Shown: positions 22,926-58,816, numbered from the stretch's first letter. The stretch is 64,000 nucleotides of DNA from Flavobacteriales bacterium (GCA_041691695.1 JBEPUG010000003.1:7445-71444), one strand, 5' to 3'. Notes: generated by a model from the sequence alone, not told the origin. A program made the numbers and translations.

Positions 22926-23533
22926 CAGGAACGAAGCGGTGGGGCGGCGGTCTTCGCCACTGCGCGCGCGGCGTTGAAGCAGGTGCGGCAGAGCGGCTGG
23001 TAGCTGTCGGTCTCCCCCAGCATGATCAGGTCCTTGTTGGCGTTGGTGCGGTGGCTGTAAACGGCCAGCTCGCCGCAACGCATGCAGATGGCGTGCACCT
23101 TAGTCACGAATTCCGCCATGGCCATCAGCTGTGGCATGGGGCCGAAGGGTCGTCCTTTGAAATCCATATCGAGCCCGGCGACGATGACGCGCACGCCCTT
23201 GGCGGCCAGTTTTTCGCACACCTTGATCAGCCCTTCATCAAAGAACTGCGCCTCATCGATGCCCACCACCTGGATGATGCCCACGCGTTGAAAGAGGTCG
23301 GCGCTGTCCAGCACGGCTTGGCTTTTCAAGGTGCTGTGGTCGTGGCTCACCACGTCGGTATCGTGGTAGCGGGTGTCGGTGATGGGCTTGAAGATCTCCA
23401 CCTGCTGCTTGGCGAATTCGGCGCGGCGCAGACGGCGGATCAGTTCCTCGGTCTTACCGGAGAACATGCTGCCGCAGATCACCTCGATCCATCCTCGGCG
23501 TTGGGCGCGATCACCGGTGTGTTCCAGGAACAT
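22925..23533 (-). CDS. tdk: Thymidine kinase
   Basis: P-loop GSMFSGKTEELIRR plus a C-terminal zinc ribbon (CMRCG...CRTC). The 295-aa track ORF is trimmed to MFLEHTG.... Confidence 0.85.
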   Translation of the reverse strand: MFLEHTGDRAQRRGWIEVICGSMFSGKTEELIRRLRRAEFAKQQVEIFKPITDTRYHDTDVVSHDHSTLKSQAVLDSADLFQRVGIIQVVGIDEAQFFDEGLIKVCEKLAAKGVRVIVAGLDMDFKGRPFGPMPQLMAMAEFVTKVHAICMRCGELAVYSHRTNANKDLIMLGETDSYQPLCRTCFNAARAVAKTAAPPLRS

Positions 23534-29512: not shown

Positions 29513-29558
29513 AAGGACTAACTTGGTCATCACAAGGAACCGACCAAACCGGATCGAT

Positions 29559-32460: not shown

Positions 32461-33123
32461 ATGGATGATGCGAGTGAAGAAGTTCCACAGCTGCGGTTGC
32501 TGGTGGTGGGTGCAGGAGGCCTCGGCAATACCCTGCTTCCGCGCGTGTTGCGCTGGCGATGGGAGGGCATCACTGTGATGGATGGGGATCGCGTGGAGGA
32601 GAAGAACCTGTATCGGCAAGAGCTCTTCGCACCCGTGGACATCGGCAAGTCGAAGAGCGAAGTGGTCGCGGCCTGGGTGCGCAACATGCCGATCGCAGTG
32701 CGCCTGATCGGGCGGGATGAATTCATCGATGTGAACAGTGCCGAAGCCGTCATCGCTATGCACGATGTGGTGGCGGATTGCACGGATGATGCGCATGTGA
32801 AGCGTCTTCTCGATCGCACCTGCGCGGATTACGGCGTACCGCTGGTGAGCGGATCGGTACATGGCAAGGAAGGGCAAGTGATGGTGCTGCACGCCGAAGG
32901 AGCTGATGAAGCGATCACGCGGGATGATATCTTCCAAGGAAAGCCCGGAATGGAGCAGGACGGTTGCGACATGCGGAAAGTGCCGCTAGTGACACTGGAA
33001 GAGACCGGCCGGCGTATGGCTCAACTGCTCCATGCATTGCTTCAGAATGAACCCGTGAAGAACGGCCGCATCGACCTCTTCGATGGAAAACGTTGGACCG
33101 CGATCGATCCACCGGAAAAGTGA
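32461..33123 (+). CDS. ThiF/MoeB/HesA-family E1-like adenylyltransferase (short form, no rhodanese domain)
   Basis: 220 aa. Nucleotide-binding motif VVGAGGLGN. First gene of the Moco cluster. Confidence 0.75.
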   Translation: MDDASEEVPQLRLLVVGAGGLGNTLLPRVLRWRWEGITVMDGDRVEEKNLYRQELFAPVDIGKSKSEVVAAWVRNMPIAVRLIGRDEFIDVNSAEAVIAMHDVVADCTDDAHVKRLLDRTCADYGVPLVSGSVHGKEGQVMVLHAEGADEAITRDDIFQGKPGMEQDGCDMRKVPLVTLEETGRRMAQLLHALLQNEPVKNGRIDLFDGKRWTAIDPPEK

Positions 33124-33126
33124 TCG

Positions 33127-33855
33127 ATGGACACCACGCTCTTGATCGTCTTGATCGCTTTTGTGGCCTTCGCCTATGCCATGGTGGGTCATGGCGGCGC
33201 GAGCGGTTATCTCGCGTTGATGGCGCTGGCGGGCATGTCCGTGGTGGTGATGCGCCCCACCGCACTCGTGCTGAACCTCTTTGTCAGCGCCATATCCTTC
33301 ACGCAGTACGCGCGCTCCGGCCATTTCAAATGGAGCACCTTCTGGCCCTTCGCGATCCTCTCCATTCCGGCCGCATGGTTCGGCGCGCACATCGTGCTAG
33401 ATCCTCAGATCTACAGGCGCATCCTTGCGGTCTGCCTGCTCTTTGCGGTGGCTCGGTTGTTCGGTCTCTTCGGCAAGGGAGGTGAGGGCATCAAGCCGGT
33501 GCCTTTGATCTGGGGCCTGTTGATCGGTGTGGTGCTCGGCTTCGTCTCCGGCATGATCGGCATCGGCGGCGGCATCCTACTGAGCCCGGTGTTGCTGCTC
33601 TGTAATTGGGCTGACATGAAGACCACGGCTGCGACCTCGGCGCTCTTCATCTTCGTCAACAGCACCGCTGGTGTCATCGGTGCTTTCGGAAGTGGGGAAA
33701 CGTTGAGCACCAGCATGGTGCCGTGGATCATCGCCGCGGTATTGGGCGGACTGCTCGGCAGTTGGATCGGCGCGAAGCGATTGAACGAATTGCGATTGAA
33801 GCAGGCGTTAGGCATCGTGCTGCTCTTAGCCAGCGTGAAACTGATAATGGCATGA
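33127..33855 (+). CDS. TauE/SafE (DUF81) family anion-exporter-like membrane protein
   Basis: 242 aa with 7-8 TM helices. Two GGGxxxxPxL-like repeats (GHGGASGYLAL, GIGGGILLSPVL). Confidence 0.8.
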   Translation: MDTTLLIVLIAFVAFAYAMVGHGGASGYLALMALAGMSVVVMRPTALVLNLFVSAISFTQYARSGHFKWSTFWPFAILSIPAAWFGAHIVLDPQIYRRILAVCLLFAVARLFGLFGKGGEGIKPVPLIWGLLIGVVLGFVSGMIGIGGGILLSPVLLLCNWADMKTTAATSALFIFVNSTAGVIGAFGSGETLSTSMVPWIIAAVLGGLLGSWIGAKRLNELRLKQALGIVLLLASVKLIMA

Positions 33856-35024
33856 TCGACGTGCAAGAAGCGAAGCGGCGTGTGATAGCGAACGTGCAGG
33901 TGATGCCGACGGAAGCGGTGCCGCTGATCGATGCATTGGGTCGCTTTGCTGCGAACGATGTGGCCGCGCCTTTCGATCACCCGCTCTTCGATTGCAGTGC
34001 GATGGACGGCTACGCGTTCGCGTTTTCAGAAGTAGTGAAAGAGTGGAAGGTGATAGGTGAAGTAGCCGCTGGCGATGCGTTTCCGCGAAGCCTGAATGCC
34101 GGTGAATGCGTGCGGATCTTCACAGGTGCCATGCTGCCGAAGGGCACCGACACTGTGGTGATGCAGGAACTCGCGCAACGCGATGATGATGTGTTGACGC
34201 ACAGCGACGTGAAGTTGAAGCGCGGCGGAAACGTGCGCTTCAAAGGAGAGCAGTTGCGTGCTGGCGATGTGGCATTGCCGAAAGGAATGCTACTTGATGC
34301 GGCTGCTATCGGGCTGTTGGCGTCGGTCGGTATACAAGAGATCAAAGTGGCGGAGAAGCCGCGCGTGGCATTGCTGATCAGCGGGGATGAATTCGTGGAA
34401 GGCACGGTTCCACAACCCGGTAGGATCTTCGGAAGCAACGGCGTGATGTTGCAAGCGGCGTTGCGCGAAGCGGGGATCGAAGCAAGCGTAGTGCAGGTCA
34501 GCGATGATCGTGAGGCCTTGATCGCTGCGTGGAAGCAAGCGACGCAGCGACATGATCTCATCATCTCCACCGGTGGCGTTTCCGTTGGTGATCACGATCT
34601 GATCCGGTCCACTTTGGAAACGCTTGGAGCGGAGATCATCCTGCACGGCGTGATGCAGAAACCGGGCAAGCCGATGCTTTTCGGGAAACTGGAAGACACG
34701 CTCGTCTTCGGACTGCCCGGCAATCCCCGCGCTGTGATGGTGCTCTTTTTGGAATACGTGCTGCCCTTCCTGCGCGCTATGCAAGGAGCGAGGGAACCGG
34801 GTCCGCACACGGACCATCTTCCGATCGAACACGAGTTGAAGGTCAAAGGGGATCGCGCGGAATTCCGTGCGGCGCTTGTGGCGAATGGCAAAGTGAAATT
34901 GTTGGCGGATGAGGGATCTCACATGTTGGGATCGATCACCGGGGCGAATGCGTTGGCATTCATTCCGGCGAACGTGCGCGAGTTGAAAACCGGAGACATG
35001 ATCGAAGTACATTACATCCATTGA
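33852..35024 (+). CDS. moeA: Molybdopterin molybdotransferase
   Basis: The 433-aa track ORF is trimmed to MIDVQEAKRRV... (ATGA overlap with the upstream gene). MoeA N-terminal and MPT-binding domains are present (GGVSVGDHD). Confidence 0.85.
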   Translation: MIDVQEAKRRVIANVQVMPTEAVPLIDALGRFAANDVAAPFDHPLFDCSAMDGYAFAFSEVVKEWKVIGEVAAGDAFPRSLNAGECVRIFTGAMLPKGTDTVVMQELAQRDDDVLTHSDVKLKRGGNVRFKGEQLRAGDVALPKGMLLDAAAIGLLASVGIQEIKVAEKPRVALLISGDEFVEGTVPQPGRIFGSNGVMLQAALREAGIEASVVQVSDDREALIAAWKQATQRHDLIISTGGVSVGDHDLIRSTLETLGAEIILHGVMQKPGKPMLFGKLEDTLVFGLPGNPRAVMVLFLEYVLPFLRAMQGAREPGPHTDHLPIEHELKVKGDRAEFRAALVANGKVKLLADEGSHMLGSITGANALAFIPANVRELKTGDMIEVHYIH

Positions 35025-35593
35025 TGGGAAGCAAATACGCTTGGACAGGAGTGGTGCTCGCTGGCGGCAAAAGCACGCGCATGGGCCAGGACAAGGCGCT
35101 GATGGAAGTGGATGGCAAGCCCTTACTGCTACATGCCATAGAGAAATTGAAGCCGCATGTGCGCGAGTTGCTGGTGATCGGTGAGCCGCGCCAGTACGGA
35201 CATATCTGGCTGGATGTGATGCCGGATGAGATCCCGGGGCTAGGGCCTTTGGGAGGTATCGTCACAGCAATGGGAGCGGCGCGGCACGATCGTTTACTGG
35301 TGCTCGCAGTGGACGTGCCCGGCGTGAATGCGAAACTTTTGGAACGGCTCACGCGCGAGATGCCCGAGAACGCCGATGCGCTCGTCCCGCGTCACGAAGG
35401 GAACCTCGAGCCTCTGGTCGCTGCCTATCATCGGCGTTGCGCGGATGCCTTCATGGACCACATCACGCGCAGCCAGCTTTCCATGCACAGTGCCTTGGCC
35501 GATGTGCGCGCCGCGTACCTCGACATTAATCCCGGCGAAGATGGTTGGCCCGAGGACCTCTTCCGCAACCTCAACAGTCCTGACGACCTTTGA
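35021..35593 (+). CDS. mobA: Molybdenum cofactor guanylyltransferase
   Basis: 190 aa. N-terminus GVVLAGGKSTRMGQDKAL is the MobA signature. Confidence 0.85.
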   Translation: MMGSKYAWTGVVLAGGKSTRMGQDKALMEVDGKPLLLHAIEKLKPHVRELLVIGEPRQYGHIWLDVMPDEIPGLGPLGGIVTAMGAARHDRLLVLAVDVPGVNAKLLERLTREMPENADALVPRHEGNLEPLVAAYHRRCADAFMDHITRSQLSMHSALADVRAAYLDINPGEDGWPEDLFRNLNSPDDL

Positions 35594-35821
35594 GTGATGG
35601 ACGTGCTGCTATTCGGATTGATCGCGGAGAAGGCCGGCACCGACAAGTTGTCGATCACGGCGCCTGACACGCAAGCATTGAAGCAAGCCTTGGAAGGACG
35701 GATCGAAGGGCTTGCATCGCTGAGCTACGCATTGGCCGTAGACCGAAAGATCACGCACGGGAATGTTGCATTGAACGGCAGCGAGGAGATCGCACTGTTG
35801 CCACCATTCGCAGGAGGATGA
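35594..35821 (+). CDS. moaD: Molybdopterin synthase sulfur-carrier subunit (ubiquitin-like, C-terminal GG)
   Basis: 75 aa ending ...PPFAGG. Adjacent to moaE. Confidence 0.7.
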   Translation: MMDVLLFGLIAEKAGTDKLSITAPDTQALKQALEGRIEGLASLSYALAVDRKITHGNVALNGSEEIALLPPFAGG

Positions 35822-36318
35822 GCGAGACGAAGGCGCAAAGGAAGCGCGACATCTTCACCGAAGGCCCGATCGATCCCGCCTTCATCGCGGAGAGCATCGC
35901 GAAGCACAGCACGCGCCACGACATCGGTGCGCACGAGATCTTCTTGGGCCAGGTGCGCGCGGACGCCATCCCCGATCGCACGGATCCTTCGGCGAACGCC
36001 CTGACAACTGACAACGGACAACGGACAACTGTCAAAGCCATCGAATACACCGCGTACCGTGACATGGCCAACGAACAGATGATCGCCATTCGCGAGGAGG
36101 CCTTCGCGCGCTGGCCCATCACCTGTCTGCACCTGCATCACAGCCAAGGCGTCATCAAGGCAGGGGAGCTGTGCTTCTTCGTCTTCGCATCATCAGCGCA
36201 TCGCCATACGGCGCGCGAGGCCGTGGCCTTCGTCACCGATGAAGTGAAGAAGCGCCTGCCGATCTTCGGGAAGGAGATACTGGAGGACAGCACGCACGTT
36301 TGGAAAGAGAACCGGTAA
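35818..36318 (+). CDS. moaE: Molybdopterin synthase catalytic subunit
   Basis: 166 aa with MoaE-fold motifs. Carries an internal heptamer-repeat insertion (see 36001-36035). Confidence 0.85.
   Translation: MSETKAQRKRDIFTEGPIDPAFIAESIAKHSTRHDIGAHEIFLGQVRADAIPDRTDPSANALTTDNGQRTTVKAIEYTAYRDMANEQMIAIREEAFARWPITCLHLHHSQGVIKAGELCFFVFASSAHRHTAREAVAFVTDEVKKRLPIFGKEILEDSTHVWKENR
36001..36035. repeat. Degenerate tandem heptamer tract inside moaE: CTGACAA CTGACAA CGGACAA CGGACAA CTGTCAA
   Basis: Read directly from the sequence. Encodes ...ALTTDNGQRTTVK... in a loop that, from memory, is about 16 aa longer than in E. coli MoaE. Confidence 0.7.
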
Positions 36319-36346
36319 GGGCGGGAGATCTCCCGCCCCAACGATC

Positions 36347-37264
36347 ATGATCGACATCACCCACAAACCCACCAGCCTGCGCGAAGCCATTGCCGAGGCC
36401 ACTGTCACCGTCAGCAAGGCGGAGACCATCGCTGCCGTAAGAGAGCGACGTGTTCCCAAGGGCGATGTGATCGAAGCCGCACGCATCGCAGGTCTCTTCG
36501 GCATCAAGCGTACCGCGGACATGATCCCGGACTGCCATCCCTTACCGGTGGAACACGCCGAGGTGACCAGCAGCGTGCAGGACATGTCCATCGTGATCAC
36601 CGTGAAAGTGCGCACCATCTACCGCACCGGTGTGGAGGTGGAGGCCATGCACGGAGCCAGTGTCGCGGCGCTCACCATCTATGACATGTTGAAGCCGATC
36701 GACAAAGGCATCACCATCGATCGCATCCGCTTGGTGGAGAAAAAGGGAGGCAAGAGCGATTGGAAAGATCAGTTCGAAAAGATGCCGCGTGCGGCGGTGC
36801 TCGTCATCAGCGACAGTGTTTCAGCAGGCAAGAAGGAGGACAAGGCCGGAGCGGCGATCGGCGAGCGGTTGAAGGCGATCGGTGTGGAGATCGCTGCCAA
36901 TGCGCTGATTCCTGATGAACCGGAACAGATCGCCGCACAGGTGAAGACCTGGGCCAAGCAAGGCATTGACCTCATCCTCACCACAGGAGGCACGGGCCTT
37001 TCACCACGTGACCGCACACCAGAAGCCATCGCCCCCATCCTCGATCGCGAGGTGCCCGGCATCATGGAAGCCGCGCGCAGCTATGGCCAAGAGCGCATGC
37101 CTCTTGCGATCATGTCCCGCGGCATCGCCGGCATGATCGGTCGCACGCTCGTCATCACTCTTCCGGGATCAACACGGGGAACACAAGAGACGATGGACGC
37201 GCTTTTCCCGTTCGTGCTGCATGTGGTCAAGGTGCAGGAACATGCATATCGGCACGGGAAGTAA
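36347..37264 (+). CDS. moaC: Bifunctional cyclic pyranopterin monophosphate synthase MoaC / MogA-MoaB-like molybdopterin adenylyltransferase fusion
   Basis: 305 aa. N-terminal MoaC domain (MIDITHKPTSLREA...) and C-terminal MogA/MoaB domain (GGTGLSPRDRTPEA). Confidence 0.85.
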   Translation: MIDITHKPTSLREAIAEATVTVSKAETIAAVRERRVPKGDVIEAARIAGLFGIKRTADMIPDCHPLPVEHAEVTSSVQDMSIVITVKVRTIYRTGVEVEAMHGASVAALTIYDMLKPIDKGITIDRIRLVEKKGGKSDWKDQFEKMPRAAVLVISDSVSAGKKEDKAGAAIGERLKAIGVEIAANALIPDEPEQIAAQVKTWAKQGIDLILTTGGTGLSPRDRTPEAIAPILDREVPGIMEAARSYGQERMPLAIMSRGIAGMIGRTLVITLPGSTRGTQETMDALFPFVLHVVKVQEHAYRHGK

Positions 37265-39832: not shown

Positions 39833-40831
39833 TTACCCTCCAATACTCACCATAGGCCGTGTACTCAGGTCGTGCAGCACCTCTTCCTGCTTGTCGGGAT
39901 TGAAGGGCGGCAATCCACCGAGCATCTTGTGCTTCGCGAGAACATTCGCTTCGATCAAGGGTGAGACATCCTCGCCGCGTCGTAGTGCGGAGAGCAGGTC
40001 GGTCTCCTCGCGGGCGAAGAGGCAGTTGCGCATCTTGCCTTCGGCCGTTAGTCGTAAGCGATCACAGTTTCCGCAGAAGGGTTCGGTCACGGTGCTGATC
40101 ACCGCGAAGGTGCCTTGCCAACCTTTTACTCGGTAGGACTTGGCGGTGCTGTGCGGATCATCGTCGAGCTTCTCGATAGCATGCATACTGCCGATGCGAC
40201 CGAGCATTTCGCCATAGGTGTACACGCGGTCACGGCCCCACTTGTTGCCAGCGAAGGGCATGAACTCGATGAAGCGGACATGCACTGTGCGGTCGCGCGT
40301 GAGCTCCACAAAACGGAGCAGCTCATCGTCATTCACGCCGCGCATCACCACCATGTTCAACTTCACATGTAGGCCGCGATCGATCGCTTGTTCGATGTTC
40401 GCCAGCACGCGACCGTGGCCTTCCCGACGAGAGAGTTGCTTAAACCGTTCCGCATAGAAGGTGTCCAGGCTGATGTTGAGGCTCTTCAATCCTGCGGTGA
40501 CCAGGTCGTCCAGAAAGAGATGCAGCCGCATTGCATTGGTCGTGAGGCCCAGCTTTACGGGGAGCTGCGCCATGTCGCGCACGATGTCCACCACGTCCGG
40601 ACGCATCAGCGGTTCGCCACCGGTGAGGCGGATCTTGGTGATGCCATATTTCTCAACGAAGAGCTTGGCCAGTGTGCCGATCTCCTCGCGCGTCATCAGT
40701 TCCTCGCGCTTGAGGAAGTGCTGATCCTCCGGCATGCAGTACGTGCAGCGCAGGTCGCACTTGTCCACGATGCTGATGCGCAGGCTGCGGTGGGTGCGGG
40801 AATGCAGGTCGGTGAGCAGGGCCATATCCAT
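39833..40831 (-). CDS. moaA: GTP 3',8-cyclase (radical SAM)
   Basis: ...SLRISIVDKCDLRCTYCMP carries the CxxxCxxC radical-SAM motif plus the C-terminal second cluster. The 462-aa track ORF is trimmed to MDMALLTDL...; the MSSAIAL start 33 nt upstream is also possible. Confidence 0.85.
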   Translation of the reverse strand: MDMALLTDLHSRTHRSLRISIVDKCDLRCTYCMPEDQHFLKREELMTREEIGTLAKLFVEKYGITKIRLTGGEPLMRPDVVDIVRDMAQLPVKLGLTTNAMRLHLFLDDLVTAGLKSLNISLDTFYAERFKQLSRREGHGRVLANIEQAIDRGLHVKLNMVVMRGVNDDELLRFVELTRDRTVHVRFIEFMPFAGNKWGRDRVYTYGEMLGRIGSMHAIEKLDDDPHSTAKSYRVKGWQGTFAVISTVTEPFCGNCDRLRLTAEGKMRNCLFAREETDLLSALRRGEDVSPLIEANVLAKHKMLGGLPPFNPDKQEEVLHDLSTRPMVSIGG

Positions 40832-40912
40832 CGCAAAGGTACCAAGGGCTATTGCGGATGACATGAACGATCTGCGGATGCTAGGCGTTGATGGACGAAC
40901 GATCACGATCCA

Positions 40913-41455
40913 ATGAAGACATCCTTCCTGCTGAGCGCCGCGCTGCTGGCCATTTCCTTGGGCCTGTCCGGCTGTATCAGCATTCCTGATAATGCGAAGG
41001 CCGTCAAGCCATTCGATGCGAACCGCTATGTCGGCAAGTGGTACGAGATAGCCCGCTTCGACTACAGCTTCGAGAAGAACTTGGAGAACGTGACCGCTGA
41101 ATATGGTGTGCGACCGGACGGAACATTGTCGGTGTTGAACCGCGGCTATTACGTGAAGAAGGGGAAGTGGCAGAAGGCCGAAGGCAAGGCTAAGTTCGTC
41201 GGTGCCAAGGACGAAGGCCAATTGAAGGTCTCCTTCTTCGGGCCGTTCTATGCGGGCTATAACGTGATCGCGTTGGACCCGGATTATCGCTACGCCTTGG
41301 TGATCGGCAAAAGCACGGACTACCTGTGGCTGCTATCCCGCGAGACCACGATGCCCCAGGAGATCAAGGACAAGTATGTGGCACAAGCCAAAGCCTTGGG
41401 CTGTAAGACGGACGCGCTGGTGTGGGTCGACCAGAAGCCGCGGCCGGAGAAATGA
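40913..41455 (+). CDS. blc: Bacterial lipocalin (outer-membrane lipoprotein Blc)
   Basis: Lipoprotein signal ...LSGC. The lipocalin SCR1 motif NRYVGKWYEIAR is present. Confidence 0.85.
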   Translation: MKTSFLLSAALLAISLGLSGCISIPDNAKAVKPFDANRYVGKWYEIARFDYSFEKNLENVTAEYGVRPDGTLSVLNRGYYVKKGKWQKAEGKAKFVGAKDEGQLKVSFFGPFYAGYNVIALDPDYRYALVIGKSTDYLWLLSRETTMPQEIKDKYVAQAKALGCKTDALVWVDQKPRPEK

Positions 41456-41484
41456 GCGATCCGATGGGCGTCTAACTTTCGCCC

Positions 41485-41991
41485 ATGGTGTGCATCACGG
41501 AGGTAACGAATGCGGAAGACCTGGTGAAGGCCCAGGTCCTGTTGCGTGCATTCCCGCCGCATCAGCGTCAACACTATGTCGAGCATCTCGATACTGTAAT
41601 TCGCTATTTCGATCTGCCCGCATACGAGAAGGAAGTGTCCGATCTGCATGCGTATTACCCGCCTCCGCGCGGCTTCGTATTGCTTGCCAGTGATGAAGGA
41701 GAGGCCGCGGGTGTGGTCTGCTTGCGCCCGATGGATGCGGAGACCTGTGAGATGAAGCGGCTCTTCGTTCCGATCGCGCATCGGCGCAAGGGGATCGCGC
41801 AGGCGCTGTGTACCACGCTCATCGCTACCGCGCGCCAGAAGGGCTACACGACCATGCGGCTCGATACGGGCGCCTTCATGACGGAGCCGCAAGCGCTCTA
41901 CCGCAAACTCGGATTCAACTTCATCCCGGTCCCCGAGTCAGTCCGCGAGGATCTGCGCGGTCATCTGGTGTTCATGCAACTGCATTTATGA
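41485..41991 (+). CDS. GNAT-family N-acetyltransferase
   Basis: 168 aa. Acetyl-CoA motif A is RRKGIAQAL. Confidence 0.8.
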   Translation: MVCITEVTNAEDLVKAQVLLRAFPPHQRQHYVEHLDTVIRYFDLPAYEKEVSDLHAYYPPPRGFVLLASDEGEAAGVVCLRPMDAETCEMKRLFVPIAHRRKGIAQALCTTLIATARQKGYTTMRLDTGAFMTEPQALYRKLGFNFIPVPESVREDLRGHLVFMQLHL

Positions 41992-42551
41992 AGAAGGAAT
42001 TGGAACGCTGCTCGTGGTGCATGAAGGACGCCATCTACATGCGCTACCACGATGAGGTGTGGGGCGTGCCGGAGCACGACGACCGCAAGCTTTTCGCGAA
42101 GCTGATCCTCGATGGCGCGCAGGCCGGATTGAGCTGGTACACCATCCTGATCCGCACGGAGAGCTATGCGAAGGCCTACGACAATTGGGACGCGAAGAAG
42201 ATCGCGCGCTACGACGAGAAGGACATCGAGCGGTTGATGAATGACGCGGGCATCATCCGCAATCGCTCGAAGATCATGGCGTCCATCGGTAACGCGCAGG
42301 CCTACTTGAAGATCATGGAGGATGGCCCTGGTTCCTTCGACCGTTTCCTTTGGAAGCATGTCGGCGGCAAGACCATCGTGAATCAGCGGAAGGGGCAGTT
42401 GCCCACTTCCACGCCGGAGAGCGATGCGATGAGCAAGGACCTGAAGAAGAACGGCTTCAAGTTCGTTGGCACCACCATCGTCTATGCCTTCATGCAGGCC
42501 TGCGGCATGGTGGATGACCACATGGAGACGTGCTGGAGGAGGAAAGGTTGA
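41988..42551 (+). CDS. tag: DNA-3-methyladenine glycosylase I
   Basis: MKKELERCSWCMKDAIYMRYHDEVWGVPEHDD... (Zn site C-x3-C...H) is diagnostic of Tag. The track ORF is trimmed; its start overlaps the GNAT stop by 4 nt (ATGA). Confidence 0.85.
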   Translation: MKKELERCSWCMKDAIYMRYHDEVWGVPEHDDRKLFAKLILDGAQAGLSWYTILIRTESYAKAYDNWDAKKIARYDEKDIERLMNDAGIIRNRSKIMASIGNAQAYLKIMEDGPGSFDRFLWKHVGGKTIVNQRKGQLPTSTPESDAMSKDLKKNGFKFVGTTIVYAFMQACGMVDDHMETCWRRKG

Positions 42552-42556
42552 AACAC

Positions 42557-43426
42557 ATGCGCACACCGGTATCGTCCATACACATCACTCGGGTCGAACA
42601 TGGCGCGTCCGTCGCAACCGATGACATCCTCGTCACCGAAGAGCCGCTGGAGATCCGACTTGGCCGCGGACCGGAAGAGGACCGGAAGGAAGTACGTCTC
42701 AGCGTCACCATGCGCACGCCGGGGAACGACGAGGAATTGGCACTCGGATTTCTGTTCTCCGAAGGCATCATCTCGGGTCTCACACAGGTCCTGCGCGTGG
42801 CCTATTGCGAAGACGTGAAGGAGGAGGAGCGCGGCAACGTGGTGCGCGTGGAATTGCATCCGTCCATGGAGCTTGATCCAGCTAAGTGGCAACGGAACTT
42901 CTACACCAGCAGCAGTTGCGGCGTCTGCGGAAAGACGAGCATCGACGCGGTGCGCACGCAGTGCAGTACAACGCTCACGCCTTTCGGACCCATTGATCCC
43001 AAGGTGACCACCGCACTACCGGACCGCATGCGCGAAGCACAGATCGTCTTCAAACACACCGGCGGCATCCATGCGGCGGCGCTCTTCGACCGCGATGGAA
43101 ATCTCCTTATCCTGCGCGAAGATGTAGGCCGCCACAACGCTGTGGACAAGGTGATCGGAGCGCTGCTCGCATCCCGGCGCACGACCTTGGAAAGTCCGCC
43201 CGGACAACTGACAACTAACAACTATCAACTGCTCGTCAGTGGCCGCGCGGGCTTCGAACTCGTCCAGAAGTGTATCATGGCCGGCATCCCCTTGATGGCC
43301 GCGGTTGGAGCACCATCATCGCTTGCTGTGCAACTCGCCAAGGAAGCCGGGCTCACGTTGATCGGTTTCCTGCGTGGCGAGCGCTTCAACATCTATGCGG
43401 AACCAGCGGTGACGGGGCAACGATGA
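42557..43426 (+). CDS. fdhD: Formate dehydrogenase accessory sulfurtransferase
   Basis: FdhD fold with the conserved motif SSCGVCG. Carries an internal heptamer-repeat tract (43201-43235). Confidence 0.85.
   Translation: MRTPVSSIHITRVEHGASVATDDILVTEEPLEIRLGRGPEEDRKEVRLSVTMRTPGNDEELALGFLFSEGIISGLTQVLRVAYCEDVKEEERGNVVRVELHPSMELDPAKWQRNFYTSSSCGVCGKTSIDAVRTQCSTTLTPFGPIDPKVTTALPDRMREAQIVFKHTGGIHAAALFDRDGNLLILREDVGRHNAVDKVIGALLASRRTTLESPPGQLTTNNYQLLVSGRAGFELVQKCIMAGIPLMAAVGAPSSLAVQLAKEAGLTLIGFLRGERFNIYAEPAVTGQR
43201..43235. repeat. Degenerate tandem heptamer tract inside fdhD: CGGACAA CTGACAA CTAACAA CTATCAA CTGCTCG
   Basis: Same C-N-GACAA unit as in moaE. Encodes ...PGQLTTNNYQLL.... Confidence 0.65.
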
Positions 43427-43929: not shown

Positions 43930-44378
43930 TGGCCTTTGTGAAGCATCCGGTCACATTGGTCGCGGTGTTCACATGGCTGGGCCTCGTTGTGGGCATCGCC
44001 TTCATCGCATCGTGGTTGAAGTACAACGCATTCGGTGTTTCGCTTCCCGTGGGATTGAGCCTCGATAAGGTGATGTTCCAAGCCATGGTACGGGTGGAAT
44101 GGGTCTTCGCTTGCGCGGTGGTGGCGGATCTCATACTGGGCAAGGCCCCGGTCATTATGCTCGTTGTCGCCTTCATTCTTGTCGCGCTGCTTGCCCTTCA
44201 AACGATCTGGCTGCAACCGGCCCTCTACACGGATTCCCTGTCGGTGTTCCATGGCCAAGGCGATCCAGGTGCCGGCCTGCGCACGATGAATACTATCCTG
44301 GAAGTGTTGAAGGTCTCGCTGCTTGCCGTGCTCGGCATCATCCAGTTCCAACACATATCAACCCGCGCCGGGGTATAG
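43926..44378 (+). CDS. Hypothetical 4-TM membrane protein
   Basis: 150 aa and hydrophobic. Its start overlaps the trHb stop. Confidence 0.5.
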   Translation: MMAFVKHPVTLVAVFTWLGLVVGIAFIASWLKYNAFGVSLPVGLSLDKVMFQAMVRVEWVFACAVVADLILGKAPVIMLVVAFILVALLALQTIWLQPALYTDSLSVFHGQGDPGAGLRTMNTILEVLKVSLLAVLGIIQFQHISTRAGV

Positions 44379-44404
44379 GCGATCAACAACCAAACAACAC
44401 GATC

Positions 44405-45139
44405 ATGAAGATCACACCCGAACGGACCGTGGGGTCCATCGTCGCCGAGGACTATCGCGCGGCGGCCGTGCTCACCAAGTACGGCATTGATTTCTGCTGC
44501 AAAGGAGGCCGCTCCGTGCAGGAGGTCTGCGAGAAGAACAGCATCGACCAAGGAAAGTTGGCCGAGGACATCACCAAACTCCTGGCCCGCGATGCCAAGA
44601 GCGGTGATGACGCCCGCACCTGGCCCTTGGACCGACTGGCGGACCATGTGGAGACCGTGCATCACCGCTATGTGGAGGAGCGCGGACCGATCATCCAACA
44701 GTACTTGGCCAAGTTGTGCAAGGTGCATGGCGAGCGCCATCCGGAACTGTTCACTATCGCAGAGGAATTCAACACCTGTGTGGGTGCCATGGCCATGCAC
44801 ATGAAGAAGGAGGAGCTGATGCTATTCCCCTTCGTGCGCAACCTTGCAAAGAGCGAACGTAGCGGCGAGCCGTTCAAGAAGCCGCATTTCGGAACGGTGG
44901 AAAACCCGGTGCATGCAATGATGGCGGACCACAATGACGAGGGCGAACGCTTCGATCGCATGAACGCGGTGAGCGACCATTTCACCAGGCCGGCCGATGG
45001 ATGCGCCACTTACGCTACGGCGTTCTCCATGCTGAAGGAATTCGAGGATGACCTTCACCTGCACATCCACTTGGAGAACAACATCATGTTTCCCCGCGCT
45101 ATAGCGCTGGAGAAGCAATTGGAGAATCTCGCCGGTTGA
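44405..45139 (+). CDS. ytfE: Iron-sulfur cluster repair di-iron protein (RIC/YtfE/ScdA family)
   Basis: The 346-aa track ORF is trimmed to MKITPERTVGSIVAEDYRAAAVLTKYGIDFCCKGG.... This is the RIC N-terminal ScdA motif, followed by hemerythrin-like H...E repeats. Confidence 0.85.
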   Translation: MKITPERTVGSIVAEDYRAAAVLTKYGIDFCCKGGRSVQEVCEKNSIDQGKLAEDITKLLARDAKSGDDARTWPLDRLADHVETVHHRYVEERGPIIQQYLAKLCKVHGERHPELFTIAEEFNTCVGAMAMHMKKEELMLFPFVRNLAKSERSGEPFKKPHFGTVENPVHAMMADHNDEGERFDRMNAVSDHFTRPADGCATYATAFSMLKEFEDDLHLHIHLENNIMFPRAIALEKQLENLAG

Positions 45140-53033: not shown

Positions 53034-54692
53034 TCAGCGCTTCCCGCCTTTCACTGCCGGAGGTGGAGCGCGCTTCACGGCTCCTTGCTCATACACCACT
53101 GTGGCGACCACTTTCCCGGTGCCGTCATACATCGTCATGGTGCCGTCCAGTTTGCCGGCCTTGTAGGTCATTTCCTGCGTTACGCGGCCGTTGCGATCGT
53201 ACACGGTGCACTTGCCGTCGGGTGCGCCATCGATGAAACCCTGCTCGCGCTGCTTCACACCGGCGTCATCAAAATAGGTCCATGCACCGGTGGGCGTGCC
53301 TTTGGAATAGTCCCCTTCACTTACGGGCAGGCCGTATGAATTGTACTCCAGCCAATGGCCGCTCTTCAGCCCGTTGGCGAAGCTGCCTTCCTCCTTCGGC
53401 TTGCCGCTATCGTACCAGCTTTTCCAAGGGCCGTTCTTCACGTCGTCCTTCCACGTGGCCAAGTAGTTCTGGGTGCCATCCGGAAGCCAGCCTTGCCAGA
53501 TCCCATCCATCCGCCCTTGTTTGTAGGAGCCTTTGTCCTTCTGCTGTCCGTTCACGAACCAGCTGTTCCACAGCCCCTCCTCCTTACCGTTCGCGTAGTT
53601 GCCTTCCTGAAGTTTCTGTCCGCTCTCGAACCACGTGCTCCAAAGGCTGTCCTTCTCGCCGCTCTTCCAGTTGCCGAGCTTCCACTTCTGGCCGCCGTCG
53701 TAGTAATAGAGCCATTGACCCTCCTGCTTACCAGCGCGGTAGAGGCCGGTGGAACTCAGCTGCCCATTGGGGTACCAGTACTTCCAGAGACCATCCTGCA
53801 GGTCATTTTTGAAGTGGCCTTGAATGTCCTTTGAACCGGTGGTGGTATACCACATCCAGGTACTGTCCTTCTTGTCCGCCAGATAGAAGCCTTCCACATT
53901 CACCGTGTCGTTGGTGAACCAGGTGGTGAAGGGGCCTTCGAGCTTGCCCTTGCTCCAGTTCTCGGTACGCTCCGGAGTGCTGTCAGCATACCAGTGCTCC
54001 CATTTCCCGTGCTTCACCCCGCCTAGCCAGTGGCCGCGGGCCTTGAGATTACCCGCCGGCCAATAGGAGCGTTCTTCCCCGCTGTGCACACCGAGATGGT
54101 AAAGGCTCACATCGGCGGTGTCGCCGGTCGGATACCACGTGCGTATGGTTCCTTCGCCGTTCTTCAAGGTCTGCGTGCTGTCGCGGTCCCAGGCATCGAT
54201 GCTGAGGCAGACATCCTTGTCGCATTGCTCGGTCATCATGCGGTGGCCATCGCCGTACCAATAGGTCCACGGCCCGCGCTTCACGCCCTTCATGTAGTTG
54301 CCTTCTTCCATCAATTGACCGCTGCGGTAGTAGCTGCGCATCAGGCTGTCCTGTTGGCCGAGGTGGAACCAGCCATCGTGCTGCACCTTGCCATTGTCAT
54401 AGTAGATCATCACGTGGCCCTCACGTTCACCGCTCTTGAAATCACTCTTCTCCGTGATATGGCCTTGGGGGTCCCAGAATTTCCATTCGCCCCACTCCCG
54501 GCCATTCACCAGCAGCCCTTCGCTCTTCTTCACGGTCTTCAGGCTGTCCCAGTGGTCCACGTAAGGCTGCACCGATTGGGCGCGGCCATTCTGTGGAAGA
54601 AGGCCGATCAGCCCGATGGCCAAGGCCAAGGTGGAAAGCCAACGCTGTGGGATCGCGTTGAATAGAAGTGAGTGCGGGTGAGATCGGTGCAT
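53034..54692 (-). CDS. MORN-variant (YwqK-family) repeat protein, exported
   Basis: Track ORF trimmed to MHRSHPHSLL...GRA|QSV. More than 20 tandem WxxWYxNGQ/WxYYYxNG repeats. Confidence 0.75.
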   Translation of the reverse strand: MHRSHPHSLLFNAIPQRWLSTLALAIGLIGLLPQNGRAQSVQPYVDHWDSLKTVKKSEGLLVNGREWGEWKFWDPQGHITEKSDFKSGEREGHVMIYYDNGKVQHDGWFHLGQQDSLMRSYYRSGQLMEEGNYMKGVKRGPWTYWYGDGHRMMTEQCDKDVCLSIDAWDRDSTQTLKNGEGTIRTWYPTGDTADVSLYHLGVHSGEERSYWPAGNLKARGHWLGGVKHGKWEHWYADSTPERTENWSKGKLEGPFTTWFTNDTVNVEGFYLADKKDSTWMWYTTTGSKDIQGHFKNDLQDGLWKYWYPNGQLSSTGLYRAGKQEGQWLYYYDGGQKWKLGNWKSGEKDSLWSTWFESGQKLQEGNYANGKEEGLWNSWFVNGQQKDKGSYKQGRMDGIWQGWLPDGTQNYLATWKDDVKNGPWKSWYDSGKPKEEGSFANGLKSGHWLEYNSYGLPVSEGDYSKGTPTGAWTYFDDAGVKQREQGFIDGAPDGKCTVYDRNGRVTQEMTYKAGKLDGTMTMYDGTGKVVATVVYEQGAVKRAPPPAVKGGKR

Positions 54693-54866: not shown

Positions 54867-54940
54867 TTCCACACAGCGGCTCTTTTCGTTTGGGATCTGA
54901 AGCACATTCCGCATAGGTCCACGTATACCTTGGCATCCCG

Positions 54941-56893
54941 ATGCGACGCCCTTCATTCATTCCAAAGCAACTTCGAGTGCTTGCCGGTCTTATTGGGTTG
55001 GTGCTCCTGCTCGTCGGCTGGACCGCTGCCACCACCCCCATCGAAGGTCCGCACAGTCCACTCGAACTGGCCATTCTGCGCGGCCAGATCCAAGGCCTCG
55101 ATGTTCAGTTCGGCACCTACTTCGTCACCGCTGGCCGATGCTCGGGCTGCCATGGACATGATTCCTTGGGCATCGCCATGGTGGCTGCCGAGGGCCAGGA
55201 TGTGAATGTGACCGACGATTGGCGCAGCACCATGATGGGCAACAGCGGCCGTGATCCCTTCTTCGAGGCCAAGATCGAACATGAGGGATTGGTGAATCCG
55301 GCGCACAAGGAAGAGATCGAACACGGCTGCCTGAAGTGCCACGCGCCGTTGGCGGTCTTCGAGGAGAAGATGCTCGGCCATCCCGACTTCACCATGGCGA
55401 ACTACGACACCAGCAAGTTCGCCCACGATGGCGTTTCCTGCCTCTCCTGCCACATGCAGGATCCCGATTCCGCGGGCCACTTCTTTTCCGGCGACCTGCA
55501 CTTCGACAGTGCGCGCGTCTGGGGGCCATACACGGACCAGCAGATCAACCCCGCGATCATGCAATACTTCGTGGGCTATACGCCGGATCAGGGGCAGCAC
55601 ATCCTGGACGGTCGTGTCTGCGCAGGTTGCCACACGTTGATCACACAGACCGCCGACACCAGTGGCAACTTCACCGGCGGGCATTTCACCGAGCAGGCCA
55701 TGTGGCAGGAGTACAAGAACTCGGTCTACTATGGAACGCAGCAGAACTGTCGCGGCTGCCACATCCCGCGCATCCAGGACTCGGTGATCCTGGCCTCGGA
55801 ATACATCTTCCTGCCCGGCCAATCCCCTTATGGGGAACACCACCTCGCGGGTGGAAATACCTTCATGTTGAAACTGCTCAAGGACCACATCGGCACGCTT
55901 GGCATCCCGGCCACGGCCACCGAGTTCGACAGCACCATCGCCCGCACCCGCTACAACCTGAGACATGCCGTGCAATTGGAGACCGTGACGCCCGAGCGCA
56001 CGCAGGACACGGTCTTCGTGGACGTTCATCTCACCAACCTCATCGGCCACAAATTCCCCAGTGGCTATCCGAGCAGAAGAGCTTTCGTGCAGGTGATCGC
56101 GCTCACCGACAACGGCGATACGCTCTTCCAAAGCGGGCGATGGGACAGCACCTACGAGCTCTACGGGCATGACCTCGGTTACGAGCCGCACCACGACGTG
56201 ATCACAGAAGGTGATCAGGTGCAGATCTATGAGATGGTGATGGGCGACGTGAACGGTAACGTGACGACGACCCTGCATCGCGCGGCCTATCCGCTGAAGG
56301 ACAACCGTCTAGTGCCGATCGGCTTCAGCACTTCGCACCCGAGCTATGACACCACGAAGATCGCCGGGCTGGCAATTACGGACCCCGATTTCAACCATGA
56401 TGCCAACGGCGTGGAAGGCAATGGGGGCGACATCGTGCATTACCACATCGCGACGAACGGATACACCGGCCCCGTGCAGGTGAAGACGAAGGTGTATTAC
56501 CAGCCTGTGCCGCCGCTATGGAACGCGGAAATGTTCAGCTTCCATGGCGCGCGCATCGACAGCTTCCGCACCATGTACCACGATGCCGACGGCACACCCG
56601 AACTGGTGGCGGAGGATTCGCTGATGGATGTGGAGGTCGGTATCCGCGAGGCGCAGGCCATCGCACCGAAGGTGTTCCCCAATCCAACGCGCGACGGCAT
56701 CGTGCTGATCACCATGCCAGCGATCACGCGGATCATCGCCTATGATGCAGCGGGCCAGCGTGTGCCGTTGCAAGCCACACGGCGCTCGGACGGCTGGCGC
56801 TGCGTGCTGCCGGAGCGGGCCGGAGTATACCATCTGGTACTCACGACCTCCAAAGGCGACCAGCTTGTTCGCGTGGTGCGGCTCGCGCCATGA
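54941..56893 (+). CDS. Pentaheme c-type cytochrome with T9SS C-terminal sorting domain
   Basis: Five CxxCH motifs: CSGCH, CLKCH, CLSCH, CAGCH and CRGCH. N-terminal signal/TM. C-terminal ~80 aa (VFPNPTRDGIVLI...IIAYDAAGQRV...GVYHLVL) is a T9SS sorting domain. Confidence 0.8.
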   Translation: MRRPSFIPKQLRVLAGLIGLVLLLVGWTAATTPIEGPHSPLELAILRGQIQGLDVQFGTYFVTAGRCSGCHGHDSLGIAMVAAEGQDVNVTDDWRSTMMGNSGRDPFFEAKIEHEGLVNPAHKEEIEHGCLKCHAPLAVFEEKMLGHPDFTMANYDTSKFAHDGVSCLSCHMQDPDSAGHFFSGDLHFDSARVWGPYTDQQINPAIMQYFVGYTPDQGQHILDGRVCAGCHTLITQTADTSGNFTGGHFTEQAMWQEYKNSVYYGTQQNCRGCHIPRIQDSVILASEYIFLPGQSPYGEHHLAGGNTFMLKLLKDHIGTLGIPATATEFDSTIARTRYNLRHAVQLETVTPERTQDTVFVDVHLTNLIGHKFPSGYPSRRAFVQVIALTDNGDTLFQSGRWDSTYELYGHDLGYEPHHDVITEGDQVQIYEMVMGDVNGNVTTTLHRAAYPLKDNRLVPIGFSTSHPSYDTTKIAGLAITDPDFNHDANGVEGNGGDIVHYHIATNGYTGPVQVKTKVYYQPVPPLWNAEMFSFHGARIDSFRTMYHDADGTPELVAEDSLMDVEVGIREAQAIAPKVFPNPTRDGIVLITMPAITRIIAYDAAGQRVPLQATRRSDGWRCVLPERAGVYHLVLTTSKGDQLVRVVRLAP

Positions 56894-57699
56894 CGTCCAT
56901 TACGCTTGCTTCCATTCACGTTTATCCGGTGAAATCGCTCGGGGGTTTTTCGGTCCCGGAGGTGCGATTGACAGACCGAGGTCTGGAGCATGATCGCCGC
57001 TGGATGCTCATCGATCCCGATGGCCGATTCCTCTCTCAACGCGAATGCGCGCCCATGGCCTGCTTGCATTGCGCGCCACACGGAAACGGATTTCAAGTGA
57101 CCGATTCGCGGAATGGGAATTCGGTTGAGCTGCCGTGGTCCCTTGTGGATGGAACACGCATCAACGCCAAGGTCTGGGCTGATGAAGTTCAACTGATCCT
57201 CGGCGATGCATCCATGCACCGCTGGTTTACGGGGGTGCTGGAGCGCCCGCTGCGACTCGCTTTCATGCCAGATAGCACGCTCCGCAGCACGGACCAGCAC
57301 TATGCGAACGTGCCTGTGGCACTCAACGATGCCTTCCCTGCGATGATGGTCTCGCAGGGCTCTTTGGATGAGCTCAACACACGGCTGGAAACACCCGTGC
57401 CCATGGAACTCTTCCGCCCCAACTTCGTGATCGACGGAGGCAAGCCTTTCCAAGAAGATCACTGGAAGGAGATCACCATCGGCGAGACGCACTTTTCCAT
57501 CGTGAAACCCTGCGCGCGCTGCATCATTATCACCACGGACCAATGGACCGGTGAGCGCTCGCAGGAGCCCTTGCGCACCTTGGCCACCTATCGCTCTGTG
57601 GGAAGCAAAGTGCGCTTCGGCATGTATGCGACGTTTGACGAAGGAGGAACGGTGCGGGTCGGGGAAGTGGTCCGACCAGACGATCAGAAAATCAGATGA
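56890..57699 (+). CDS. MOSC-domain protein (MOSC N-terminal beta-barrel + MOSC; Moco-dependent sulfurase/reductase family)
   Basis: IHVYPVKSLGG...RRWMLID...FRPNFVI...IVKPCARC is the MOSC signature. No signal peptide. ATGA overlap with the cytochrome gene. Confidence 0.85.
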   Translation: MTSITLASIHVYPVKSLGGFSVPEVRLTDRGLEHDRRWMLIDPDGRFLSQRECAPMACLHCAPHGNGFQVTDSRNGNSVELPWSLVDGTRINAKVWADEVQLILGDASMHRWFTGVLERPLRLAFMPDSTLRSTDQHYANVPVALNDAFPAMMVSQGSLDELNTRLETPVPMELFRPNFVIDGGKPFQEDHWKEITIGETHFSIVKPCARCIIITTDQWTGERSQEPLRTLATYRSVGSKVRFGMYATFDEGGTVRVGEVVRPDDQKIR

Positions 57700-57811
57700 T
57701 CAGACAATGGAATGCCTTTGCCGCGATGGATGCTCAGTTCACTTCGTTGTCGCATTTCATCTGCGTCCATCGGTGTTCATCAGCGGTTCGTATTCCTATG
57801 TCGCCTGTGGT

Positions 57812-58816
57812 TCACTGCACCTCGGCCGTCTTTTTTTCTTCCGCCGGTGACCAGTACTGCACCTTCGTTGCGGAGGCGGGCACCGTGCGCAGGTAGTCGT
57901 AGATCGCGCCCAGGTCCTGCTCCGTCATGCCGCCGTACATCATCCAGGGCATCACCGTCTGGAAGTCCTGTGCCTTCCAATCCACCTTCGGCGCTACGTA
58001 GCTGCTGTCCGTGAATTCCTTGAACTTGCGAATGAAAGTGACCTTGTCCCACGCACCGATGCCGTTGTCGGTGTCCGGCGTGATGTTCGCCGAGCGCACT
58101 GTGGCGCCGTTCGGAAAGTGGAATTCAAAGCCACCTGCGAAGGGTTCACCCACGGCTTTGCCCTTATCCATCTTCGTGTGGCATTCCCGGCACCCACAAG
58201 CGTTGACGAGGTATGCGCCGTAATCCGGATCCGCGACCTTGGGCAGCGACATGGGATGCGCCGGTTGCGGGATGGTTTGCAGGATGATGTTCATCGGGAA
58301 GTCCGCTTTGGAATCTTCCGGATGGCTTTCAACGGAAGGCAGGGTGCGCAGGTAGGCGATGATGCTGTACACATCCTCGGTCGCCAGTTTATTGTAGTAC
58401 GGATAGGGCATCACCGGGAAGAAGGGGCGCCCGTCCTTGTCCACCCCGCTGGTGATCGCGCGGTAGACCTCCCCGTCGGACCATCCCTTCAAGTTGAATG
58501 GCGTGATGTTCTTCGAGACGAAACGGCCGGGGAAATTCATGGTCTGGTCGAACACCTCGCCACCTTTCCCAAGCGTGCCAGGTATCGGAGGCGCGGTGAG
58601 CTTGTTCCAGTCGCGGGTGCTGTGGCAGTCCATGCAGACCGTCACATGGTTGGCGAGGTATTCCCCTCGGGCCACGCGCTCCGGTGTGAGTTCCACATGC
58701 AGTTCCTTCTGCACTGGAATGTCAGGAAGTGCTTTGGTGATGTAGGTGATGCCGCCGATGATGACGAGCACGATCACGGCCAAAAGAATGCCGAGGACTT
58801 TCAGAAACTTCTTCAT
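57812..58816 (-). CDS. Membrane-anchored dihaem c-type cytochrome
   Basis: The 507-aa track ORF is trimmed to MKKFLKVLGILLAVIVLVII... (TM anchor). Two CxxCH motifs: CMDCH and CRECH. Confidence 0.75.
   Translation of the reverse strand: MKKFLKVLGILLAVIVLVIIGGITYITKALPDIPVQKELHVELTPERVARGEYLANHVTVCMDCHSTRDWNKLTAPPIPGTLGKGGEVFDQTMNFPGRFVSKNITPFNLKGWSDGEVYRAITSGVDKDGRPFFPVMPYPYYNKLATEDVYSIIAYLRTLPSVESHPEDSKADFPMNIILQTIPQPAHPMSLPKVADPDYGAYLVNACGCRECHTKMDKGKAVGEPFAGGFEFHFPNGATVRSANITPDTDNGIGAWDKVTFIRKFKEFTDSSYVAPKVDWKAQDFQTVMPWMMYGGMTEQDLGAIYDYLRTVPASATKVQYWSPAEEKKTAEVQ

Follow-up and report, generated by a model that had tools for sequence, protein, structure and literature searches.

The window analysed here, a 64,000-nucleotide stretch of DNA from a Flavobacteriales bacterium (GCA_041691695.1 JBEPUG010000003.1:7445-71444), encodes on its plus strand a pentahaem c-type cytochrome of 650 residues (54941-56893; open reading frame, translation and homologues) with a type A C-terminal sorting domain (CTD) of type IX secretion (T9SS). 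Its gene overlaps that of a cytoplasmic MOSC-domain protein. The reading that we favour, with slightly better than even confidence, is that of a T9SS-tagged and exported electron carrier with the PHC fold, whose link to the MOSC protein is one of inherited co-expression.

The CxxCH motifs begin at residues 67, 130, 167, 227 and 270 (55139-55153, 55328-55342, 55439-55453, 55619-55633 and 55748-55762, all +), in agreement with the five that the original prediction had counted in the 650-residue protein. Five or more such motifs occurred in none of 20000 shuffles of the protein's own residues, and neither the 48 orthologues nor 78 more distant homologues (30-57% identity) deviate at any of the five. 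A Sec-type signal peptide is predicted for residues 1-30 (54941-55030, +). Read from the sequence, it has R2, R3, K9 and R12 in the n-region, a hydrophobic stretch of 15 residues (13-27) and T-A-A at 28-30 as the presumed cleavage site. The structural model has a helix at residues 9-31, and the signal peptides of homologues are typical. The window protein has no lipobox Cys. Upon Sec export the five haems would be attached in the periplasm, where c-type cytochromes in general receive their haem.

The haem-binding part is a predicted alpha-helical cap with the five motifs (55112-55960, +; motif scan and profile match), followed by a beta-rich, immunoglobulin (Ig)-like stem domain (55961-56635, +), delimited by model strands from residue 344 onwards and by alignments to 9wt8 and 5ze8. 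Pfam yielded a weak Cytochrome_C7 match only. A family profile matched cytochrome c552 of T. tepidum (5ZE8) with an E-value of 1.9e-5, covering residues 93-189, and MccSep (9wt8) was matched as well. The AlphaFold model had a mean pLDDT (predicted local distance difference test) of 73 and a pTM (predicted template modelling score) of 0.67, with the haem-binding loops, modelled without haem, below 50. Its top Foldseek match was again 5ZE8 (E-value 1.8e-12, TM-score 0.62 normalised to the target, about 15% identity). Proteins c552, ExtKL and Gsu2801 have been grouped as the 'PHC' family, which combines a haem domain with an Ig-like domain (cable bacteria paper). The hallmark of the family, a helical cap with five CxxCH motifs and then an Ig-like domain with an H..P.G.P loop, is found in the window protein. 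Going by the model and the fold match, haem core and stem belong to the c552/ExtKL 'PHC' fold family, and the exported protein would adopt this architecture, with the helical haem cap seated on the Ig-like stem. The original prediction could not map the locus onto a described system. This holds insofar as no described system combines its parts, but the haem domain does map to a known family.

With c552 the window protein shares five CxxCH motifs in the same order, the haem cap with an Ig-like domain, and an H-x-x-P-[ST]-G-x-P-x-R loop in the beta-domain, which reads PHAMPTGAPFRN in c552 and GHKFPSGYPSRR in the window (56045-56080, +; alignment and conservation). This loop contains H370 and Y376. 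On the other hand, c552 is a soluble, periplasmic, low-potential protein of 435 residues from an anaerobic phototroph, while in the window protein the beta region is larger, the N-terminus is extended and bears a conserved H38, M99 stands in place of His, and the CTD is additional. MccSep/ExtKL of Geobacter sulfurreducens (GSU2937-2936, 9WT8) agrees with the window protein in its five-haem cap and Ig-like stem, and its loop TNHAGHSIPDGUPT aligns with TNLIGHKFPSGYPS of the window protein. MccSep is a periplasmic, homotetrameric polysulfide reductase, in which haem 2 is His/Cys-ligated (C239) and the loop holds the catalytic selenocysteine U325 (2025 preprint). In the window protein this selenocysteine is replaced by Y376, a position that all but one of 75 Flavobacteriales sequences fill with Y or F, and C239 has no counterpart. 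The ExtKL model NF040886 scored 22.8 bits against a cut-off of 250 bits, and matched 46 of the 48 orthologues weakly.

The fold search, a check that the original prediction had proposed, thus returned c552- and MccSep-like proteins, whereas NrfA, HAO and MtrC stayed below threshold. A polysulfide reductase of the MccSep type was rejected because both the selenocysteine/Cys site and the Cys haem ligand are absent. NrfA was rejected as well, as NrfA chains of the PDB gave E-values of 0.26-0.89 only and all five motifs are CxxCH, with no CxxCK among them. Membership in the HAO and MtrC families was dismissed because every match was sub-threshold.

Since the haem loops are poorly modelled, haem ligation was read from conservation and not from the structure. 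The ten Cys of the CxxCH motifs are the only ones conserved in alignment columns at more than 50%, and the 78 homologues have no invariant Cys outside the motifs. Throughout the family H370 and H417 do not vary. Conservation of H300, M99 and M207 reaches 90% or more in the 78 homologues, and H38, H114 and H466 are each missing from no more than one Flavobacteriales sequence; M99 aligns with a His of c552. We infer from these residues that the five haems are all six-coordinate, some of them probably with His/Met ligation. Because of this presumed ligation the protein would be an electron carrier with a potential higher than that of c552. Electron transfer appears likelier than substrate conversion because a catalytic Cys or selenocysteine is lacking and the conserved His and Met suffice for five haems. 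Besides these residues D105, E251, Q252, E257, R379, R456, D481 and D497 are invariant.

The putative T9SS type A domain comprises residues 578-650 (56672-56890, +; TIGR04183, model, Foldseek and alignment). TIGR04183 matched the C-terminal part of about 73 residues with 22.7 bits against a cut-off of 23 bits (E-value 7e-5, model positions 1-70 of 72), and PF18962 did not match the window cytochrome. Yet 41 of the 48 orthologues matched TIGR04183 (best E-value 2.5e-9), and several of them are named 'T9SS type A sorting domain-containing protein' by NCBI. The family profile matched the solved T9SS CTDs 8h97 and 8glk_D, of a beta-agarase and an endonuclease I, and the second Foldseek match was the T9SS cargo protein HBP35. 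Residues 578-650 were modelled as a beta-sandwich with a pLDDT of about 90, preceded by a low-confidence linker. The motifs PNP, D..G and G.Y.L and a terminal basic residue (R) are common to this domain and the CTDs of two other cargo proteins encoded in the window. In the orthologues PNP, G586, L623, P624, G628, Y630 and R644 are invariant or nearly so. The CTD, which the original prediction had called unmistakable, is therefore borderline as a single sequence, where that wording went too far, and solid at the family level.

The two other cargo proteins, which pass PF18962 and were used as controls for the CTD from the same genome, are an S8 subtilase with a GEVED domain (1172-3766, -) and an FG-GAP/ASPIC protein that also contains an Ig_7 domain (29262-32375, +). 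Because of these further CTD genes the organism can be taken to use T9SS, and the cytochrome to carry a T9SS tag. Cargo of this system is either anchored or released. The type A CTD would, by homology, hand the protein to T9SS, with the cell surface or the medium as its predicted destination. Characterised type A cargo such as RgpB and HBP35 of P. gingivalis and ChiA of F. johnsoniae has the layout that is predicted for the window protein, a signal peptide and a C-terminal beta-sandwich of about 70 residues with type A motifs. Described cargo consists, however, of hydrolases, adhesins, nucleases and haem-binding proteins; in the full-text literature searched we found no description of a c-type or multihaem cytochrome as T9SS cargo.

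A word-indexed search yielded more than 3367 relatives, the closest being proteins of about 650 residues from metagenome-assembled genomes (MAGs) of uncultured Flavobacteriales. In an exhaustive search, with clustering at 50%, 2373 representatives were found, of which 550 had E-values below 1e-30. Members that we saw were annotated as hypothetical, as 'multiheme c-type cytochrome' or as 'T9SS type A sorting domain-containing protein', and no cultured strain was among the family samples inspected. MAG names suggest activated sludge, lakes and soil as the habitats of the hosts; among Flavobacteriales of wastewater, freshwater and soil the family is abundant. Forms with a T9SS CTD occur in Bacteroidota and Calditrichia. 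Burkholderiaceae, Thiotrichaceae and others have forms of 550-610 residues, in which a lipobox is combined with a long linker of low complexity. In non-Bacteroidota homologues (P0185-P0270 of our set, e.g. P0190, P0197 and P0208) the lipobox and a linker rich in Pro, Thr, Ser and Gly stand in place of the CTD. Because homologues outside the Fibrobacterota-Chlorobiota-Bacteroidota (FCB) group swap the CTD for a lipoprotein anchor, tethering or export appears as a trait of the family, brought about by phylum-specific signals.

Loci were compared on the basis of a scan of GTDB species representatives, which gave 80 loci, all from MAGs of Flavobacteriales or other Bacteroidota. They split cleanly into an orthologue clade with at least 52% identity (43 distinct loci, made up of scan loci and further collected ones) and a paralogue clade with 46-51% identity (43 loci, often in genomes that also hold an orthologue). 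As a rule a Flavobacteriales MAG encodes two T9SS-tagged paralogues. The CTD is kept in both clades and in the Calditrichia homologues.

These data bear on the question whether the cytochrome stays in the periplasm, for instance as a link between a membrane-anchored dihaem cytochrome encoded downstream and a periplasmic partner. The CTD would then be vestigial, or would serve disposal or a minor secreted fraction. Both characterised fold relatives, c552 and MccSep, are periplasmic, haem is attached in that compartment, and the CTD of the window protein scores just below the curated threshold. In addition, the dihaem gene lies within the fetched flank in 16 of the 43 orthologous loci, and an outer-membrane conduit was not found. 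However, the CTD motifs are near-invariant in the orthologues, the domain persists in both Flavobacteriales clades and in Calditrichia, which selection would hardly bring about for a useless tag, and homologues outside the FCB group resort to a lipoprotein anchor. We consider a periplasmic location improbable and prefer that of an exported carrier.

The dihaem cytochrome c (57812-58816, -; 334 residues, translation and Pfam Cytochrom_C) converges on the cytochrome and MOSC genes, just as the original prediction had it. It has a transmembrane helix at residues 5-27 and CxxCH motifs at 58622-58636 and 58178-58192. Its open reading frame extends to 59335; the start consistent with homologues is MKKFLKVLG at 58816. 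The protein matched, with E-values from 2e-21 to 1e-16, the cytochrome subunits that belong to membrane-bound dehydrogenases of glucose, aldehyde, alcohol and fructose. The likeness to these c subunits of flavo- and quino-dehydrogenases (8HDD_B, 8GY3_A, 7W2J_C) lies in the class I cytochrome c domains. Where they have three haems it has two, it is anchored in the membrane by its N-terminus, and genes for dehydrogenase subunits are not adjacent. It is probably an ordinary electron carrier of the inner membrane that faces the periplasm and marks the far end of a block of synteny. On the other side of the cytochrome lies a divergent gene for a putatively exported protein of 550 residues that consists almost wholly of MORN_2 repeats (53034-54692, -; Pfam MORN_2, 122 bits; the start at 54692 and the signal peptide were read from the sequence). 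A MORN_2 gene precedes the cytochrome, as its most conserved neighbour, in about 38 of 40 orthologous loci.

In principle, the dihaem cytochrome of the inner membrane and the pentahaem protein of the surface might, with a component in the periplasm between them (perhaps the MORN_2 protein, perhaps some other carrier), form an outlet across the envelope, which would deliver electrons to minerals, humics or partner cells or serve reductive iron acquisition. The recurrence of the block from the MORN_2 gene through the cytochrome to the dihaem gene is in line with this, as are weak matches to models of the MtrC/OmcA type (PF22113 with 21.2 bits against a cut-off of 30 around haems 4-5 of the window protein; TIGR03507 in 44 of the 48 orthologues). 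A gene for a VIT1 iron transporter sits in the block of some lineages, and extracellular multihaem cytochromes have been predicted in wastewater Bacteroidota, albeit with no naming of T9SS (PMC11495043). Yet no element that spans the outer membrane is conserved, as a gene for an outer-membrane protein (OMP) was seen in one inspected locus only; the dihaem gene, present in the fetched flanks of just 16 loci, belongs to a common family that resembles dehydrogenase subunits; the MtrC-type matches are all sub-threshold; and the hosts appear to be aerobic heterotrophs. We regard such an outlet as decidedly unlikely. The MtrC and OmcA proteins of Shewanella resemble the exported carrier that we propose in their role, as multihaem cytochromes that reach the outside of the outer membrane by a dedicated secretion route. 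They are, however, lipoproteins, like the distant homologues of the window protein, which itself has five haems instead of ten, no MtrAB-like conduit nearby, and a T9SS tag in place of type II secretion (T2SS) with a lipid anchor. From surface exposure the original prediction had drawn a link to extracellular electron transfer. Electron transfer at the surface remains plausible, but the step to it is conjectural, with T9SS cargo being either anchored or released, no conserved conduit nearby and the nearest fold relatives in the periplasm.

The cytochrome gene ends in an ATGA overlap with the MOSC gene (56890-56893, +), the same four nucleotides that the original prediction had pointed out. The downstream gene (56890-57699, +; PF03476 and PF03473) encodes a protein of 269 residues, in which MOSC_N (68.8 bits, cut-off 25) and MOSC (88.9 bits, cut-off 22.7) are well above the Pfam thresholds. 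It matches human mARC1 (6fw2) with an E-value of 6.6e-27. C211, within the PCARC motif of VKPCARCIIITTD, aligns with the Cys of ACSRC in ACSRCILTTVD of mARC1, and we take it to be the Cys that coordinates the molybdenum cofactor (Moco); its codon is at 57520-57522 (+). There is no N-terminal extension before the beta-barrel and no ferredoxin domain. Because the protein starts directly with the beta-barrel it is without an export signal, as had been claimed. Like mARC1/2 and E. coli YcbX it has a MOSC_N beta-barrel with a MOSC domain, the Moco Cys and no export signal, yet it is devoid of the 2Fe-2S domain of YcbX and of the membrane anchor of mARC. It is a putative cytoplasmic molybdenum reductase of the mARC/YcbX type, enzymes that reduce N-hydroxylated compounds. 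From the overlap it is evident that the two genes are co-transcribed and, probably, translationally coupled, an arrangement kept across family-level divergence, with the ribosome predicted to pass via ATGA from the cytochrome into the MOSC gene. Because the two products would reside in different compartments they cannot exchange electrons.

Conservation of the operon in relatives, which the original prediction had suggested to check, is substantial among orthologues. The MOSC gene lies directly 3' of the cytochrome in 33 of the 43 loci. Of these junctions 31 are overlaps (24 ATGA, 3 GTGA and 4 TGATG), and two have spacers of at most 9 nucleotides. In three loci the MOSC gene is displaced by 0.6-3.7 kb, in three it is absent (L017, with VIT1 instead; L023, with Vut_1 directly after the cytochrome; L038, with neither), and four contigs are too short to judge. 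The block has the order MORN_2 (divergent), then cytochrome, MOSC, VIT1 or an OMP gene in some loci, Vut_1 and sometimes an acetyltransferase, and finally the dihaem gene (convergent). MORN_2, cytochrome-MOSC-Vut_1 and dihaem genes were found together in loci from contigs of 3.9 Mb and 2.4 Mb. The orthologue clade appears to sit in a vertically inherited block. In the window the dihaem gene adjoins the MOSC gene because Vut_1 is missing there. In many relatives a gene for a Vut_1/YhhQ-type transporter follows the MOSC gene, with a 4-nt overlap of the two in L001 (9941-11517). A gene for an iron transporter of the VIT1/CCC1 type replaces the MOSC gene in L017 (7956-9080, +) and follows it in L005 (10791-11909, +); VIT1 in the block is a possible hint of an iron connection.

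None of the 43 paralogous loci has a MOSC gene next to the cytochrome. Paralogues are flanked by genes for a T9SS-tagged M28 peptidase, a T9SS-tagged cupredoxin, a dipeptidyl peptidase IV (DPP-IV)-like peptidase and DnaB, and this neighbourhood is equally syntenic with housekeeping genes. Because the paralogue flanks are this stable, little can be concluded in this lineage from synteny alone. The genes of three proteobacterial lipoprotein homologues stand by themselves, and a conserved partner of the distant lipoprotein homologues was not found, the 224-residue neighbours in L087 and L089 being unrelated. On at least three occasions the MOSC gene appears to have been lost from a locus that retained the cytochrome. 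In the literature, 'MOSC domain' together with 'multiheme' gave incidental co-mentions only. The pairing of cytochrome and MOSC genes is best read as inherited co-expression in one family-level clade of Flavobacteriales and not as a two-part machine, because the products of the string, a secreted cytochrome, a reductase of the cytoplasm and a transporter of the inner membrane, are a mixture, because the paralogues are just as syntenic and because the MOSC gene was lost repeatedly. The view of surface cytochrome and MOSC protein as one system stands as far as the coupling in one clade is concerned, while a joint pathway is unsupported and three lineages do without the MOSC gene; paralogues and distant homologues lack it too. 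Taken together, the MOSC link is probably incidental.

The pairing would gain a function if it served a detoxification in two layers as one stress response, with the secreted pentahaem protein as an enzyme that acts outside, by reduction or oxidation, on small reactive nitrogen (hydroxylamine, nitrite, nitric oxide) or sulfur compounds, and the MOSC protein clearing N-hydroxylated compounds in the cytoplasm. The overlap in 31 of 33 direct junctions fits this, and so does the retention of the Moco Cys in a protein of the class that reduces such compounds. The fold relative MccSep is a true enzyme, many polar residues of the cytochrome are invariant, sludge, lake and soil are presumably places where nitrifiers release these compounds, and a gene of the ScdA/RIC type lies in the window. 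But the cytochrome has neither a conserved Cys or selenocysteine nor an obviously open haem, NrfA matches are far under threshold, and three lineages, as well as the entire paralogue clade, have the cytochrome but no MOSC gene. Moreover, the string includes the unrelated Vut_1 and VIT1 genes, with Vut_1 overlapping MOSC by 4 nucleotides in L001 as well, and an extracellular enzyme would still need a source of electrons. We judge a shared detoxification to be quite unlikely.

Several observations weigh against an exported carrier with a merely inherited MOSC link, the reading that we prefer. The CTD of the window protein falls 0.3 bits short of the curated TIGR04183 cut-off. The model of the cytochrome is of moderate quality (pLDDT 73), with haem loops below 50. 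The invariant polar residues would equally fit a substrate or metal site, i.e. an enzyme. A porin-cytochrome or other outer-membrane conduit is not conserved nearby, so that the porin partner considered by the original prediction did not turn up, and an electron route to a cytochrome at the surface is not visible. Finally, an overlap kept over 52-80% identity exceeds that of most neutral neighbours, so that the co-expression may have a functional reason.

About 22 of the 43 paralogous loci (L042-L086) have a gene for a small plastocyanin/azurin-type cupredoxin with a T9SS CTD within about 2 kb of the paralogue (e.g. L056:9214-9858, -; L055:8941-9570, -; L067:9321-9968, -). Several redox proteins thus seem to be T9SS cargo in this lineage of Flavobacteriales. 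As a speculation, which we hold to be rather unlikely, T9SS may place holo-multihaem cytochromes on the surface of common aerobic Flavobacteriales from sludge, lakes and soil, with two paralogues per genome, one of them beside a T9SS-tagged cupredoxin. These would constitute an undescribed extracellular redox layer without an Mtr-like conduit, which might operate via shuttles or contact or serve iron acquisition or the oxidative breakdown of polymers.

Taken singly, none of the components is new, whether fold family, T9SS tag or MOSC enzyme. If the cytochrome is exported via T9SS, redox proteins would join the hydrolases, adhesins and nucleases on the list of cargo, the system would be able to carry a multihaem protein loaded with its cofactors, and Bacteroidota would have a route to extracellular cytochromes distinct from the T2SS/lipoprotein route of Shewanella and Geobacter. 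With its abundance the family could play a part in the fluxes of electrons and iron within flocs. Of less weight is the coupling of cytochrome and MOSC genes, which appears to be a lineage-specific co-expression unit and cautions against reading function from an overlap alone.

Upstream of the cytochrome the candidate -7 promoter element TACCTTGGC (54926-54934, +), which resembles the TAnnTTTG motif of Bacteroidota, was identified by sequence reading and upstream k-mers. The k-mers TACCTTGCG and TACCTTTCG occur with at most one mismatch in 16 of 27 orthologous upstream regions. Because the element ends 7 nt 5' of the ATG, a near-leaderless or leaderless cytochrome mRNA is suggested. A sigma-70 scan gave no match, the expected outcome in a Bacteroidota host, and neither did a terminator scan. 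Apart from the promoter-like element of the TAnnTTTG type the k-mers recovered no regulatory motif from the 27 regions.

The Moco pathway, which the original prediction had placed in the window, is indeed encoded in full 15-25 kb upstream of the cytochrome, at 32461-37264 and 39833-43426. A MoeB-like protein of the ThiF family, MoeA, a MoaC-MoaB fusion, MoaA and FdhD were identified by Pfam, and MobA, MoaD and MoaE by reading only. The MoeB-like gene is separated from MoeA by a gene for a permease of the TauE/SafE family. The presence of MobA and FdhD suggests an enzyme with bis-molybdopterin guanine dinucleotide elsewhere in the genome, besides the MOSC protein of the molybdopterin type. In L001-L004 a gene set resembling a NAD-dependent formate dehydrogenase lies a few kb downstream of the operon. 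The ScdA/RIC-type gene of the window (44099-45139, +) encodes an iron-centre repair protein with ScdA_N and hemerythrin domains (RIC/YtfE-like), a family that is usually tied to nitrosative or oxidative stress. A further gene (20469-23078, -) encodes a protein of 869 residues in which the middle domain of a Mur ligase is fused to an entire alanine racemase.

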